A stretch of DNA of 32,000 nucleotides from Caedimonas varicaedens (GCA_001192655.1 BBVC01000022.1:1-32000), one strand, 5' to 3'; shown: positions 1-22,631, counted from the stretch's first letter. The notes: generated by a model from the sequence alone, not told the origin. Numbers and translations: made by a program.

Positions 1-133
1 TTATTCTCCAGACTTTAATCCCATCGAGCATAAATGGGCACAAGCAAAAGCAATTAGACGCAAAAAAAGGTGTTCTATCGAGCAATTATTTCAGGATAAT
101 AAAATATGACCGTTTTATATGTTGTTAGCTATA
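1..133 (+). mobile_element. IS630-family insertion sequence, 3' part (truncated by window edge)
   Basis: Reverse complement of 21725..21857, the end of the complete copy. Ends in the terminal repeat ...gaccgttttatatgttgttagctata at 133. Confidence 0.85.
2..109 (+). CDS. IS630-family DDE transposase, C-terminal fragment (partial at window start)
   Basis: Frame-2 translation YSPDFNPIEHKWAQAKAIRRKKRCSIEQLFQDNKI* is identical to the C-terminus of the 274-aa transposase at 21749..22573. Confidence 0.85.
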   Translation, partial: YSPDFNPIEHKWAQAKAIRRKKRCSIEQLFQDNKI

Positions 134-339
134 ATTTGGAAAAAATATTGTATAAGATATTTAAATATTCTATATTAACTATTCATTTTTAGATTTTTAG
201 AAGAAAATTAATAAAGAAAACCCATCATAACAGACAGATACAGAAGCATTCAATAAAGCTCAATCTTAAAATGATGTTATGATATTTTGGTCGACAACAG
301 AGAAAATGACTAAATTATGATATGTGGAAAGGAAATACA

Positions 340-1107
340 ATGAAGAGAATTTTTGCTTTATATTTATTCAATTTGGCATTAATTGCAACAAACACTAGCT
401 TTGCTACGTCTATTTTAGAAGAGGAATGTACGGCTGTTTTTAATGAGCTTATTCGAGTAGGGAAAATTCCTGAAGTGTTGCCTCAAGAAAAAGTCAGGGA
501 AATTCAGGGACAGGGGCGACAAAGAGTTCAAATTGACCAGAATCTGGTGAATGACGTTCAACGCAAACGTGAAGAGTTAAGACAAAACCATGATAACGGA
601 GGCATTTCTTGGGATGAGTATGGAAATGCAGACGAATTAGTGGCTGCAAAATTACCTGTTAGAGACATGAGAGATGAAAAAAAAGACTGTAATGAGACAG
701 CTCTGCACGCTAAATTAATCATACTGGCAAATCAGGCTTTGAAAAAAAGTATTGAATATAAATTAGGAGTAACCCTAAACGATGAAAATAGTTTAGATGT
801 AAAAGCCACTAATAAATTGGGCCAACAAGCTTTTACAGTCTCAAAAATTGAAGGAATTCAAAATAAAGAGGGAGATACGTATGGAGTTTACAGTAAAAAT
901 CCTAAGATTTTTAAATTTATGAAAATACATTCGGACTATAAACAAGGACAAACTTCTTTTGATTTTGAAATGCACGCGTTAGGTGCTTCTTTAATGTGCA
1001 CTGTTACAAGCTCATGGAGACTTTATGGTAAGTTTACAAACTATTATATCTTTAAAAATGGTAAGGTACGTGACCCAGCGGATATTTTATATTCTCTAAA
1101 AGATTAA
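340..1107 (+). CDS. hypothetical secreted protein (orphan, no recognisable family), copy 1
   Basis: ORF 322..1107. The ATG at 340 is preceded by aaagga 7-8 nt upstream. The N-terminus MKRIFALYLFNLALIATNTSFA looks like a Sec signal peptide. The upstream region is AT-rich. I recognise no motif. Confidence 0.6.
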   Translation: MKRIFALYLFNLALIATNTSFATSILEEECTAVFNELIRVGKIPEVLPQEKVREIQGQGRQRVQIDQNLVNDVQRKREELRQNHDNGGISWDEYGNADELVAAKLPVRDMRDEKKDCNETALHAKLIILANQALKKSIEYKLGVTLNDENSLDVKATNKLGQQAFTVSKIEGIQNKEGDTYGVYSKNPKIFKFMKIHSDYKQGQTSFDFEMHALGASLMCTVTSSWRLYGKFTNYYIFKNGKVRDPADILYSLKD

Positions 1108-1126
1108 TTTTGATCAACGTAGAACT

Positions 1127-1156
1127 CGTCTTAGGGAAAAGATTTTCCCTAGGACG
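1127..1156. terminator. hairpin between convergent genes (putative bidirectional terminator)
   Basis: cgtcttagggaaaa-gat-tttccctaggacg: 13-14 bp stem with one G-U/mismatch, lying between the stop at 1107 and the lpxB stop at 1216. Confidence 0.5.
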
Positions 1157-1215
1157 ACGATATTTGTAAAATACAGGCTATGTTTTGCCTGAAAAACAAA
1201 TGTCAAGATCGGTTG

Positions 1216-20641: not shown

Positions 20642-20700
20642 CAACCGATCTTGACATTTGTTTTTCAGGCAAAACATAGCCTGTATTTTACAAATATCGT

Positions 20701-20730
20701 CGTCCTAGGGAAAATCTTTTCCCTAAGACG
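20701..20730. terminator. mirror copy of the 1127..1156 hairpin
   Basis: cgtcctagggaaaa-tct-tttccctaagacg. Confidence 0.45.
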
Positions 20731-20749
20731 AGTTCTACGTTGATCAAAA

Positions 20750-21517
20750 TTAATCTTTTAGAGAATATAAAATATCCGCTGGGTCACGTACCTTACCATT
20801 TTTAAAGATATAATAGTTTGTAAACTTACCATAAAGTCTCCATGAGCTTGTAACAGTGCACATTAAAGAAGCACCTAACGCGTGCATTTCAAAATCAAAA
20901 GAAGTTTGTCCTTGTTTATAGTCCGAATGTATTTTCATAAATTTAAAAATCTTAGGATTTTTACTGTAAACTCCATACGTATCTCCCTCTTTATTTTGAA
21001 TTCCTTCAATTTTTGAGACTGTAAAAGCTTGTTGGCCCAATTTATTAGTGGCTTTTACATCTAAACTATTTTCATCGTTTAGGGTTACTCCTAATTTATA
21101 TTCAATACTTTTTTTCAAAGCCTGATTTGCCAGTATGATTAATTTAGCGTGCAGAGCTGTCTCATTACAGTCTTTTTTTTCATCTCTCATGTCTCTAACA
21201 GGTAATTTTGCAGCCACTAATTCGTCTGCATTTCCATACTCATCCCAAGAAATGCCTCCGTTATCATGGTTTTGTCTTAACTCTTCACGTTTGCGTTGAA
21301 CGTCATTCACCAGATTCTGGTCAATTTGAACTCTTTGTCGCCCCTGTCCCTGAATTTCCCTGACTTTTTCTTGAGGCAACACTTCAGGAATTTTCCCTAC
21401 TCGAATAAGCTCATTAAAAACAGCCGTACATTCCTCTTCTAAAATGGACGTAGCAAAGCTAGTGTTTGTTGCAATTAATGCCAAATTGAATAAATATAAA
21501 GCAAAAATTCTCTTCAT
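20750..21517 (-). CDS. hypothetical secreted protein, copy 2 (intact)
   Basis: Translation identical to copy 1. One synonymous difference (tct/tcc) near 21446. Confidence 0.6.
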   Translation of the reverse strand: MKRIFALYLFNLALIATNTSFATSILEEECTAVFNELIRVGKIPEVLPQEKVREIQGQGRQRVQIDQNLVNDVQRKREELRQNHDNGGISWDEYGNADELVAAKLPVRDMRDEKKDCNETALHAKLIILANQALKKSIEYKLGVTLNDENSLDVKATNKLGQQAFTVSKIEGIQNKEGDTYGVYSKNPKIFKFMKIHSDYKQGQTSFDFEMHALGASLMCTVTSSWRLYGKFTNYYIFKNGKVRDPADILYSLKD

Positions 21518-21724
21518 TGTATTTCCTTTCCACATATCATAATTTAGTCATTTTCTCTGTTGTCGACCAAAATATCATAACATCATTTTAAGATTGAGCT
21601 TTATTGAATGCTTCTGTATCTGTCTGTTATGATGGGTTTTCTTTATTAATTTTCTTCTAAAAATCTAAAAATGAATAGTTAATATAGAATATTTAAATAT
21701 CTTATACAATATTTTTTCCTGAAA

Positions 21725-22631
21725 TATAGCTAACAACATATAAAACGGTCATATTTTATTATCCTGAAATAATTGCTCGATAGAACACCTTTTTTTGCGT
21801 CTAATTGCTTTTGCTTGTGCCCATTTATGCTCGATGGGATTAAAGTCTGGAGAATAAGGAGGCAGATACAGCACGATATGCCCTGCCTCAGCAATTGCTT
21901 TTTGCATCGCTTTTCCCTTATGAAAGGTGGCATTATCCAAAATAAGGACGCTTTTAGGAGGCAGTTTCGGAAGTAAATCGTCAATGATCCATTGTGTAAA
22001 CACCTCGGTATTAATCGAGAAGCAGAACAAGCTCACGGTCAATAGCAGACCTTGGAATAAGGCGCCGATGACATTCGTTCGTCCCTTTGCTCCCCAATCA
22101 TGAATCCCCTCACATCTCTTTCCTTTTGGAGAATAACCATGAGTGCGTGGCATATGGTGTGCAAATCCAGATTCATCAAGAGAAATGATAGGATGCCCTG
22201 CTTCTTCATAAGCTTTCAGCTCTTGACAAAAAGTAGCACGCTTTTCTGGATCGGCCTTGGGATGTTTGAGCGTTTTTTTATAGGTCACATTCAAGCGTTT
22301 TAAAGCGTGCCATATCCCCATAGAGCTCACACCAAGACGTTCTGCTCTCTCGTACTGATAAGCATCAGGATAAAGCTGTATATCTTCTTTAAGGGCATCC
22401 ATATTAAGCTTAGTGGCTGGTTTATGACGATGTGTCTGAGGCTCAGGCTTCTTGACCCATCTGACAAGACTGGTCACTCCAACACCAAAGAGATCCGCCG
22501 TTTCAGCAAAACTCAAATTTTTCTTCTTTTTTACAGATAAAACACGAAGTCTAAAATCTAATGAATAGGTCATGGAATAATCCTCTTAAAAATTATCCAT
22601 AATATAACCATTTTAAAGGTTTTTAGCTATA
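21725..22631 (-). mobile_element. complete compact IS630-family insertion sequence (about 0.9 kb including flanking TA)
   Basis: Imperfect ~26-bp terminal inverted repeats: tatagctaacaacatataaaacggtc at 21725, and its partner (reverse complement tatagctaaaaacctttaaaatggt) ending at 22631, about 22/26 matching. TA at both ends, as expected for IS630/Tc1-type TA target duplication. Contains a single transposase ORF. Confidence 0.85.
21749..22573 (-). CDS. IS630-family DDE transposase
   Basis: 274 aa. N-terminal HTH-like region (SFAETADLFGVGVTSLVRW). Catalytic candidates are LDESGF, ILDNATFH and NPIEHKW. The E lies 35 residues after the second D, which is the DD35E-type spacing of IS630/Tc1-mariner. 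Confidence 0.9.
   Translation of the reverse strand: MTYSLDFRLRVLSVKKKKNLSFAETADLFGVGVTSLVRWVKKPEPQTHRHKPATKLNMDALKEDIQLYPDAYQYERAERLGVSSMGIWHALKRLNVTYKKTLKHPKADPEKRATFCQELKAYEEAGHPIISLDESGFAHHMPRTHGYSPKGKRCEGIHDWGAKGRTNVIGALFQGLLLTVSLFCFSINTEVFTQWIIDDLLPKLPPKSVLILDNATFHKGKAMQKAIAEAGHIVLYLPPYSPDFNPIEHKWAQAKAIRRKKRCSIEQLFQDNKI

Follow-up and report, generated by a model that had tools for sequence, protein, structure and literature searches.

A near-perfect 21.9-kb inverted duplication of envelope genes in a Caedimonas varicaedens contig is probably an assembly fold-back beside an IS630-family element

The duplicated locus and its setting

The window analysed here, a stretch of 32,000 nucleotides (BBVC01000022.1:1-32000), is part of a 43,140-bp contig in the draft genome of Caedimonas varicaedens, whose host is Paramecium. 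According to the source genome paper, this is a class-project draft of 142 contigs, assembled from Roche 454 reads with Newbler 2.5.3, and the genome gave about 100 transposase hits; the paper makes no mention of amplification. The deposited contig contains an inverted duplication of envelope genes of about 21.9 kb. By self-BLAST, positions 1..10773 match 21857..11084 with 99.824% identity over 10,778 columns, and a repeat search tiles the palindrome with nine blocks of 97-100% complementarity. A spacer of 310 nt (10774..11083) separates the arms. The inverted repeat, its short spacer and its gene content (lpxB to hemF, with an IS630-type transposase) are thus as the original prediction described them.

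Arm 1 (1..10773) is the cleaner copy, with every ORF intact, and agrees with the DNA of relatives at every difference between the arms that this DNA covers. It carries an orphan gene (322..1107, + strand) and, identified by NCBIfam and Pfam hits, a block on the - strand made up of lpxB (1216..2346), lpxI (2354..3190), lpxA (3177..3980), fabZ (3984..4451), lpxD (4444..5496), skp (5510..6097), bamA (6109..8379) and rseP (8418..9542), followed on the + strand by trmL (9746..10198) and hemF (from 10195), whose stop codon at 11036-11038 is reached through the spacer. With the orphan and HemF excepted, the nine proteins of this arm are exact deposited C. varicaedens proteins (GAO97987-97991 and 97993-97995, with Skp as GAO97992), and several of them have exact matches in independent assemblies as well. 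The spacer (+ strand) runs on colinearly from arm 1 and, as far as 11061, also keeps the order seen in relative L085; it holds the 3' end of hemF, 21 nt of intergenic sequence, a TA at 11060-11061 and, at its end, the 22 nt that begin an IS copy, here called copy B.

Arm 2 (11084..21857) is the inverted, error-laden copy. Its hemF is truncated at 11084, and arm 1 alone runs on to the hemF stop. Its trmL encodes 136 aa and its fabZ 135 aa, bamA is split into 13519..15303 and 15320..15748, lpxB is split into 19510..20157 and 20288..20641, and substitutions change RseP (V194D/Y248H) and BamA (K2R/F498L). These products were deposited as GAO97999-98006, among them a BamA of 587 aa (GAO98000), the FabZ of 135 aa (GAO98004) and the RseP variant (GAO97999).

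Beyond arm 2 lies a single-copy flank (22691..27267), with def (22691..23284, +), rsfS (23310..23720, -), a MORN-repeat protein gene (23958..24605, -) and the VgrG gene (24613..27267, -), oriented with respect to arm 1 just as in relatives and with one accession per protein (GAO98011, 98012, 98014). Between 22628 and 23808 (1,181 nt) the contig is 100% identical to relative L085. A mirror palindrome of the whole contig was considered and ruled out, given that def, RsfS, VgrG, Prs, L25 and Pth have one accession each. At its other end the contig begins within an IS630 copy (copy A), at or near window position 1. L17/rplQ (GAO97985) and RpoA (GAO97984) are on a separate contig of 30,882 bp and lpxB is GAO97987, which places the contig break inside copy A; the outer limit of arm 1 is therefore the edge of the contig and of the window, not a biological boundary. 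The accession order of the deposit follows the true synteny, the accession next to rplQ opening the 43,140-bp contig.

A single-copy locus in relatives, with two IS630 insertions added

The locus was compared with a 15,147-bp contig of GCA_041443065.1 and with the relatives L081-L087, which are other strains with 97.4-100% identity. All of these carry the locus once, in the order rplQ-orphan-lpxB...hemF-def and without an IS; hemF adjoins def, with a spacer of 82 nt, and the orphan adjoins rplQ. The inverted duplication is found in none of them. In these independent assemblies, although not of the same strain, the envelope cluster is single-copy. Among the GTDB representative genomes the best HemF match was 69% identical, which shows that the species is missing there.

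What distinguishes the window from these relatives at the ends of the locus is an IS630-family element, present in full at 21727..22629 (903 bp, +). Its transposase ORF (21749..22573, -; 274 aa, GAO98010) has Pfam hits to PF13358 DDE_3 (6.7e-31) and PF01710 HTH_Tnp_IS630 (2.7e-16), and its inversely oriented terminal repeats, TAGCTAACAACATATAAAACGGTCATA and TAGCTAAAAACCTTTAAAATGGTTATA, are identical at 22/27 positions. The element resembles IS630/Tc1-mariner transposons in this domain pair, in its roughly 27-bp terminal inverted repeats and in the TA duplication. An exact look-up of the transposase on other contigs gave no DNA-bearing match. Of copy A only the left-end 131 nt remain (1..131, -), cut by the window start and equal to the reverse complement of 21727..21857; its TA target lies at 132..133, and L086/L087 have the empty site, TTTTTTCCAAAT-TA-TATAAAAATTT. 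The left terminal inverted repeat of copy B, the 27 nt TAGCTAACAACATATAAAACGGTCATA, stands at 11062..11088 (+) and is the same as 21727..21753. Its TA duplication on the def side is at 22630..22631, with 11060-11061 as the partner, and L085 has the empty site CAAACGA-TA-TA-CGAAAA. The flanks of copy B (21 nt, TA and 59 nt) add up to 82 nt, the hemF-def spacer of GCA_041443065.1, and copy B is a TA insertion between hemF and def. Judged by these target sites, IS copies A and B inserted independently, each at a TA that was empty in the ancestral state. At the edge of the IS in arm 2, the flank is aberrant: it reads TCCTGAAATA and ends in TA (21717..21726, +), where arm 1 and the relatives have CCAAATTA. 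The 10-mer TCCTGAAATA recurs within the IS at 21762..21771.

These insertions bear on the suggestion that the palindrome is an established, composite-transposon-like block, whose arms are diverging by real transitions with gene conversion and flip-flop inversion of the loop. IS630-family sequence does lie at both outer ends and at the inner junction, and as in Tn5/Tn10-type composite transposons two inverted IS copies flank the envelope cluster. However, the outer end of arm 1 is the contig edge, and the block does not have IS termini on both sides, since at the inner junction IS nucleotide 27 is joined to hemF position 10773. Nor is there insertion as a unit, as there are two separate empty TA sites and the locus is colinear in relatives. 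Unlike in Tn5/Tn10 composites, the cluster is ancestrally placed, each IS copy came with a target duplication of its own and the inner junction lies elsewhere than at an IS terminus; there is therefore no sign that the block moved as a unit.

Differences between the arms

A global alignment of the arms has 19 differing columns, namely eight substitutions (seven transitions and one transversion) and 11 indel columns (10 events). The resulting 18 events comprise eight clean run-length indels, an indel patch at the IS edge, the seven transitions and the transversion. Polarity was read from the relatives' DNA at 133/137, 411, 1578, 1702, 1711, 1735, 10014 and 10586, from exact protein matches in FabZ and BamA, and in RseP from seven relatives, with V194 and Y248 in 7/7. 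Of the 18 events, 16 could be polarised; in each of these arm 2 carries the derived state and arm 1 the ancestral one, and the reverse was found in none. Arm 2 has eight frameshifts (three in lpxB, one in fabZ, two in bamA, one in trmL and one in hemF), essential genes among those hit, and an error density of 0.17%. Since arm 1 has no arm-specific frameshift and the flank matches a relative at 100%, the poor quality is confined to arm 2. The original prediction took the fact that the arms are not identical as an argument against a fold-back, and this argument is undercut by differences that are one-sided (arm 1 ancestral in 16/16) and that break reading frames in arm 2.

The differences had also been described as mostly transitions, a description that does not hold against 10 indel events, eight of them clean and 454-like. 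All 8/8 clean indels are 1-nt changes in run length. The indel rate per run is 0.4% for 3-mers, 1.1% for 4-mers, 1.4% for 5-mers and 8% for 6-mers, and 5/8 clean indels sit in runs of at most 5 nt. A gradual rise of the indel rate with run length is the profile of 454 miscalls. In addition, the transitions are 7/7 from A/T to G/C, toward arm 2, opposite to the bacterial mutation bias from GC to AT. Mutation in a mismatch-repair-deficient background could also favour single-base runs and transitions; the direction of the changes and the run-length profile argue against it. Explaining the substitutions as paired over-call and under-call errors of 454 sequencing was no better than chance, as about half of them fit. 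The indels in single-base runs at first suggested a fold-back of long reads (ONT/PacBio), and the proposed checks had assumed long reads; the 454/Newbler source rules out the former and corrects the latter.

Phasing offers a further argument. Between differences the arms are identical over stretches of up to 2,353 and 2,467 nt. Reads of about 400 nt cannot phase identical stretches of 2.4 kb, and hence the differences should be errors from a thin layer of reads rather than divergence; all derived states fall on one arm despite this unphaseable spacing. Any clustering of the arm-2 errors into read-sized patches is only weakly significant (P = 0.03-0.09), a point against the artefact reading. 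A real second copy would show alleles on both copies and a spectrum typical of the genome, and neither is seen. That the arms differ at all is what an established block would predict, but one-sided differences, about half of them indels, that break essential genes in arm 2 alone, and that 454 reads could not have assigned consistently over identical blocks longer than 2 kb, are not. Together with the IS evidence, this leaves such a block with next to no credibility.

The junction between the arms

The fold-back junction, J1, lies at a 5-nt microhomology, TCATA (11084..11088), common to IS nucleotides 23-27 and to the reverse complement of hemF 10769..10773. It is an inverted join to the nearby opposite strand with a skip of 310 nt and short complementarity, which is the anatomy of a fold-back chimera. 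The original prediction had seen a specific IS-derived structure here. IS sequence is indeed present, but J1 is not a product of transposition, because it lies 27 nt inside the IS and not at its terminus. A false overlap was also considered as its origin and rejected: by eye, IS nucleotides 1-27 and the reverse complement of hemF match poorly beyond TCATA, and their similarity is far below the minimum overlap of an assembler.

Among random inverted joins in this locus, 0.6% would show microhomology of at least 5 nt (P = 0.006). This counts against a purely informatic concatenation, in which contigs or scaffold neighbours were abutted at 11083/11084 with no gap and no chimeric molecule; a blunt join of this kind would meet such a microhomology by chance in about 0.6% of cases, and the origin of a separately called second copy of 10.8 kb would be left unaccounted for. 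Accession order matching synteny does hint at ordered or scaffolded contigs, and even so we consider concatenation highly improbable.

J1 compares well with chimeras from strand-displacement amplification, which were likewise inverted, over a short distance and seen on the same platform (Lasken & Stockwell 2007, PMC1855051). Of the 454 amplification chimeras in that study, 85% were inverted; among those inverted over less than 10 kb, 93.5% had at least 2 bp of complementarity (PMC1855051). At 310 nt, well below 10 kb, J1 has the geometry of this dominant class, and its 5 nt of complementarity lie within their 2-21 nt. They differ in that those chimeras are at the level of reads, whereas here the assembler would have spread the junction into a second arm of 10.7 kb, and amplification is unstated for this genome.

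Origin of the palindrome

We favour, with a probability of roughly 0.68, a chimeric fold-back junction that led the assembler to traverse a single-copy locus twice, so that the palindrome is an artefact: arm 2 looks like an error-laden re-traversal of that locus. The original prediction had left the choice between real architecture and a fold-back artefact, leaning to the former; of these, the fold-back is favoured, and the lean to a real structure fits poorly with an error-laden arm 2 and single-copy relatives. The true order is most likely rplQ - IS630(A) - orphan - lpxB...bamA-rseP - trmL - hemF - IS630(B) - def, once, with an artefactual second arm that would extend over about 11089..21753 (10,665 bp).

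At least one chimeric molecule or read, primed on the 5-nt complementarity TCATA, would have connected nucleotide 27 of IS(B) with hemF on the opposite strand, skipping back 310 nt, and given the overlap graph an edge by which the left end of the IS leads backwards into the arm. The far end of the arm abuts the IS left end of copy A, where the detour would regain the same IS node; the assembler could thus unroll one cycle into a single contig of arm, loop, reverse arm, IS and def. The second pass would draw on the few reads left over, a thin layer of roughly 1-2x, hence the uncorrected run-length miscalls and PCR-type A/T-to-G/C substitutions of arm 2. We infer the chimeric read and the path through the graph from these features, and the low depth of arm 2 from its error density alone. 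The chimera may have arisen in vitro, during whole-genome amplification or library preparation, or as a rare in vivo U-turn molecule, and with either origin the palindrome would not be genome architecture.

That the palindrome reaches the contig end within an IS fits an artefact. Against an artefact, the assembler must prefer a minority chimeric edge over the well-supported continuation from hemF into the IS, and Newbler normally collapses repeats of 99.8% identity and breaks contigs there. Furthermore, the clean arm is the terminal one, where simple fold-backs at a contig end are expected to have a poor terminal arm. Fold-back contig artefacts as described are similar in the near-perfect palindrome at a contig end, the single copy in relatives and one poorer arm (PMC12870357). 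In contrast, those come from long reads and turn at an adapter or with zero length, and here there are short 454 reads, a 310-nt loop, a microhomology junction and a poorer arm that is internal.

The alternative is a real, very recent inverted duplication in vivo, with identical arms and every difference a sequencing error. A replication U-turn in a freshly inserted IS630 would then have duplicated about 21.6 kb, resolved via inverted IS630 copies. In a locus already framed by the inverted IS630 copies A and B, the nascent strand would copy 27 nt of IS(B), make a U-turn at TCATA, 310 nt behind, and copy the locus backwards into IS(A), where homologous recombination with IS(B) would restore the original strand; the product would be arm - loop - inverted arm - IS - def. 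The palindrome would be tolerated because the endosymbiont would lack efficient palindrome processing, and obligate endosymbionts often do lack repair or palindrome-processing functions. The structure is exactly the one predicted, with one microhomology junction, TCATA, and IS homology concealing the other. If the arm were at 2x, no other walk through the graph would be consistent with depth. Both IS copies are missing in relatives at 98-100% identity, which, like the roughly 100 transposase hits of the genome, is a sign of recent IS activity. On the other hand, a long inverted repeat around a short spacer is unstable in bacteria, and the duplication occurs in no relative examined. After polarisation none of the differences between the arms counts as a true one, which would require an extremely young event that had nonetheless reached high frequency in the population. 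If a depth-aware assembler had written a collapsed repeat out twice, both arms should share one consensus, and arm 2 is far worse than arm 1. The J1 32-mer is absent from the JGI metagenome contigs and the ORF spanning J1 from public assemblies, which is weak evidence because the relatives lack the IS at the hemF-def site. U-turn inversions primed by microhomology are documented in vivo, as are tandem-inversion-duplication models (PMC4417113; PMC4689423). In the U-turn, TID and ODIRA models, as here, a microhomology-primed switch to the opposite strand shortly upstream yields an inverted duplication. The U-turns of PMC4417113 are defined by a span of less than 50 bp and are low-frequency molecules. 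Triplications that have two novel junctions are the outcome of TID and ODIRA, whereas in the window a single novel junction is visible and the second would hide in IS homology. On balance, we regard an in vivo duplication as unlikely.

Consequences for the deposited genome

If the palindrome is an artefact, BBVC01 and UniProt carry spurious copies of BamA (GAO98000), FabZ (GAO98004) and RseP (GAO97999), the split lpxB and trmL copies of arm 2 are likewise spurious, and about 10.7 kb are to be deleted from the contig. Holosporales comparisons of gene dosage, pseudogenisation and paralogy could then be misled. The case also provides criteria that separate artefact from divergence when reads are not at hand: polarise the differences, match the type of error to the platform and ask about phasing. 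If the structure is true, a bacterium would offer a rare natural case of essential genes on a long palindrome with a short spacer, caught just after its formation and with both junctions interpretable, and this would point to IS expansion as a driver of such events in early-stage endosymbionts.

A frameshift common to both arms

One frameshift in hemF does not distinguish the arms. Relative L085 has a 280-aa hemF with a 4-nt overlap onto the trmL stop, and the window has one base more. A G9 run in arm-1 hemF was suspected as the error and ruled out, since L085 likewise has G9. The true discrepancy is a T5 run at 10263..10267 (+), which is T4 in L085 and is found in both arms.

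The inverted repeat in the deposited contig

The original prediction described a near-perfect palindrome in this Caedimonas varicaedens contig, and as a sequence observation it is confirmed: window positions 1..10773 (arm 1) align with the reverse complement of 11084..21857 (arm 2) at 99.824% identity over 10,778 aligned columns of a self-alignment, the repeat being tiled by nine gap-free blocks and its arms separated by a 310-nt spacer (10774..11083). The predicted gene content also stands, since lpxB, lpxI, lpxA, fabZ, lpxD, skp, bamA, rseP and trmL are all present, together with hemF and an IS630-type transposase. 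Arm 1 extends to window position 1, where the repeat is cut off and has no true end. Most likely, the palindrome is not part of the organism's genome; judged from sequence and assembly comparisons, the best explanation (probability roughly 0.7) would be a single-copy locus to which a fold-back chimeric junction was joined.

Native arrangement of the locus

BamA has an identical counterpart in an independent metagenome-assembled genome, GCA_041443065.1. There it lies on a contig of 15,147 bp, where the locus is single-copy and runs VgrG, a 215-aa protein, RsfS, def, hemF, trmL, rseP, bamA, skp, lpxD, fabZ, lpxA, lpxI and lpxB, with a hemF-def spacer of 82 nt. L085, a locus from a JGI metagenome, equals the window minus 11062..22627, with an identity of 99.2% towards hemF and of 100% over 1,181 nt towards def. 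At the other end, arm 1 is matched by two further relatives' loci, L086 and L087, as far as the IS edge, beyond which L087 continues into rplQ-rpoA-rpsK-rpsM-...-secY. In C. varicaedens, L17 (GAO97985) and RpoA (GAO97984) lie on a separate 30,882-bp contig, and no transposase is annotated between these accessions and that of lpxB (GAO97987). The start of the 43-kb contig thus falls within a copy of the IS and coincides, or very nearly so, with window position 1; the true neighbour of the locus on this side is rplQ. The accession order over the two contigs (within GAO97974-GAO97987: rpoA and rplQ, then GAO97986 and lpxB on the next) likewise equals the L087 order and suggests that the contigs of the deposit may have been ordered or scaffolded, a point on which the paper is silent.

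Several metagenome assemblies from JGI, ENA and Logan, and the MAG GCA_041443065.1, contain sequences with 97.4-100% identity to C. varicaedens (L081-L087 and the MAG contig), so close relatives of this Paramecium symbiont turn up widely in environmental data. The 261-aa orphan reading frame between the IS and lpxB (322..1107), which has no Pfam or NCBIfam match, is intact in L087 (1221..2006) and split into 62 + 173 aa in L082 (2339..3116), while lpxB is split into 154 + 210 aa in L081; the relatives therefore carry gene decay or assembly errors of their own.

IS630 copies and the fold-back junction

A 903-bp IS630-family element lies at 21727..22629, flanked by TA on both sides and bounded by imperfect 27-nt terminal inverted repeats (22/27 identical). 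Its left end is found again at 11062..11088, 21 nt plus TA beyond the hemF stop codon. Because 21 + 2 + 59 gives 82 nt, exactly the hemF-def spacer of the relatives, and L085 retains the empty site CAAACGA-TA-TA-CGAAAA, this copy, IS(B), entered the hemF-def spacer by simple insertion at a TA. The copy at the window start, IS(A), is represented only by its left end, in inverted orientation (1..131), and its target is a second ancestral TA, seen as TTTTTTCCAAAT-TA-TATAAAAA in L086 and L087.

J1, the fold-back junction, falls within IS(B): the TCATA at IS nt 23-27 (11084..11088) is also the reverse complement of hemF 10769..10773, and beyond this point the sequence goes backwards through the arm. 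The terminal inverted repeat ends, on its inner side, exactly at J1, which is away from any IS terminus and was for this reason rejected as a transposition product. Together with the separate ancestral TA sites of the two copies, this position contradicts the earlier proposal of a composite transposon with diverging arms, a reading that fails on several tested points and is scarcely tenable. Microhomology of at least 5 nt is expected in 0.6% of random inverted joins at this locus, which argues that J1 was primed by annealing in a physical molecule and is not a blunt concatenation; that scaffold neighbours were simply run together without a gap is accordingly very improbable. The geometry of J1 is that of the dominant class of strand-displacement-amplification chimera in 454 data (PMC1855051). 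Endosymbiont DNA is commonly amplified in this way (PMC3842359); the announcement of the C. varicaedens genome mentions no amplification.

The two insertions (1..133; 11060..11088 / 21727..22631) are strain-specific: relatives at 98-100% identity have neither. They stand in inverted orientation on either side of the envelope cluster. Palindrome aside, recombination between them could truly invert the intervening 10.9 kb, a change that short reads would miss. The arm-2 IS flank at 21717..21726 reads TCCTGAAATA where the ancestral sequence is CCAAATTA; this 10-mer recurs within the IS at 21762..21771 (nt 36-45), does not fit a single-base-run error, and may reflect read mis-alignment at the repeat edge.

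Differences between the arms

In a global alignment the arms differ at 19 columns, eight substitutions and 11 indel columns. Besides a small complex indel patch beside the IS edge, the indels comprise eight clean 1-nt run-length changes (T6/T5 twice, A4/A5 twice, A3/A4 twice, A5/A4 and G9/G8). All eight are intragenic, and in every case the frame is kept in arm 1 and lost in arm 2, with three frameshifts in lpxB, two in bamA and one each in fabZ, trmL and hemF. The arm-1 state is found in relatives' DNA at 133/137, 411, 1578, 1702, 1711, 1735, 10014 and 10586, and arm-1 FabZ and BamA have exact protein matches in other assemblies. V194 and Y248 of RseP are shared by arm 1 and 7/7 relatives, D194 and H248 being unique to arm 2. 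Overall, 16 of 18 events could be polarised (all but 9285 and 9649), and the derived state is on arm 2 in 16/16.

The transitions run from A/T to G/C in 7/7 cases. Mutation in bacteria is generally biased the other way, from GC to AT, and the observed direction is typical of Taq-type errors in PCR. The per-run indel rate climbs gradually with run length, five of the eight events falling in runs of at most 5 nt; slippage in vivo concentrates in the longest runs, and a gradual profile fits pyrosequencing miscalls better. Identical stretches between differences reach 2,353 and 2,467 nt, over which reads of ~400 nt could not phase real alleles, yet the derived states all sit together on arm 2. The arm-2 consensus is most simply read as derived from a separate, very thin read layer, its differences being technical and not evolutionary; the error density of 0.17% suggests an arm-2 depth of perhaps 1-2x.

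The main rival, which we consider unlikely though well above the other alternatives, is a real and very recent U-turn duplication in vivo, resolved through IS homology. Long palindromes with short spacers are unstable in bacteria, the duplication is missing from all relatives, and the arms show zero true divergence. Moreover, a collapsed repeat node that was duplicated should yield identical arms, whereas these are asymmetric. In its favour, U-turn duplication has mechanistic precedents (PMC4417113; PMC4689423), and the deposited path would then be the unique depth-consistent walk. Under the preferred fold-back reading, both arm ends abut IS left ends, so that an edge that leaves IS nt 27 and re-enters the arm would give the overlap graph a closed cycle, from IS through the reverse arm to IS. 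Unrolled once, this cycle would give exactly the deposited contig, and the second pass, built from leftover reads, would be error-rich. Less readily accommodated is that Newbler kept both versions of a 99.8% repeat, with their differences, in a single contig, and that the poorer version is internal while the terminal arm is the clean one.

One frameshift is common to both arms: hemF has T5 at 10263..10267 and at the arm-2 counterpart, vs T4 in L085, a +1 change that must lie in the template DNA or be a systematic miscall. In the first case hemF would be a real pseudogene of this strain; in the second, 454 would have over-called the run systematically. The true hemF start is the ATG at 10195, overlapping the trmL stop codon.

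Deposited copies and flanking genes

The genome, that of a symbiont of P. biaurelia, was produced as part of a graduate class by Roche 454 pyrosequencing and assembled with Newbler 2.5.3 into 142 contigs of 42.1% G+C; its announcement reports many transposases and mentions neither amplification nor paired-end libraries (PMC4645214). Nine arm-1 proteins (the orphan and HemF excepted) have exact GenBank matches, GAO97987-97995 of Caedimonas (Caedibacter) varicaedens, on a 43,140-bp contig. Arm-2 copies were deposited separately, as the RseP variant (GAO97999), a 587-aa BamA (GAO98000), Skp (GAO98002), LpxD (GAO98003), a 135-aa FabZ (GAO98004), LpxA (GAO98005) and LpxI (GAO98006). The flank genes def, rsfS, vgrG, prs, rplY and pth have one accession each (GAO98011-98018), which rules out mirroring of the whole contig.

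LpxI (2354..3190) bears the name 'hypothetical protein Cva_00649' in the deposit. Its score with the NCBIfam LpxI model, 219 bits, is under the curated cut-off of 400, but the relatives' annotation assigns it both Pfam domains, LpxI_N and LpxI_C. Adjoining def/rsfS, in an arrangement kept in relatives, are an 884-aa VgrG spike protein with Phage_GPD, Phage_base_V and Gp5 domains and a 215-aa MORN-repeat protein (23958..27267); the pair may represent a type VI secretion spike with its effector or adaptor in this Paramecium killer endosymbiont.
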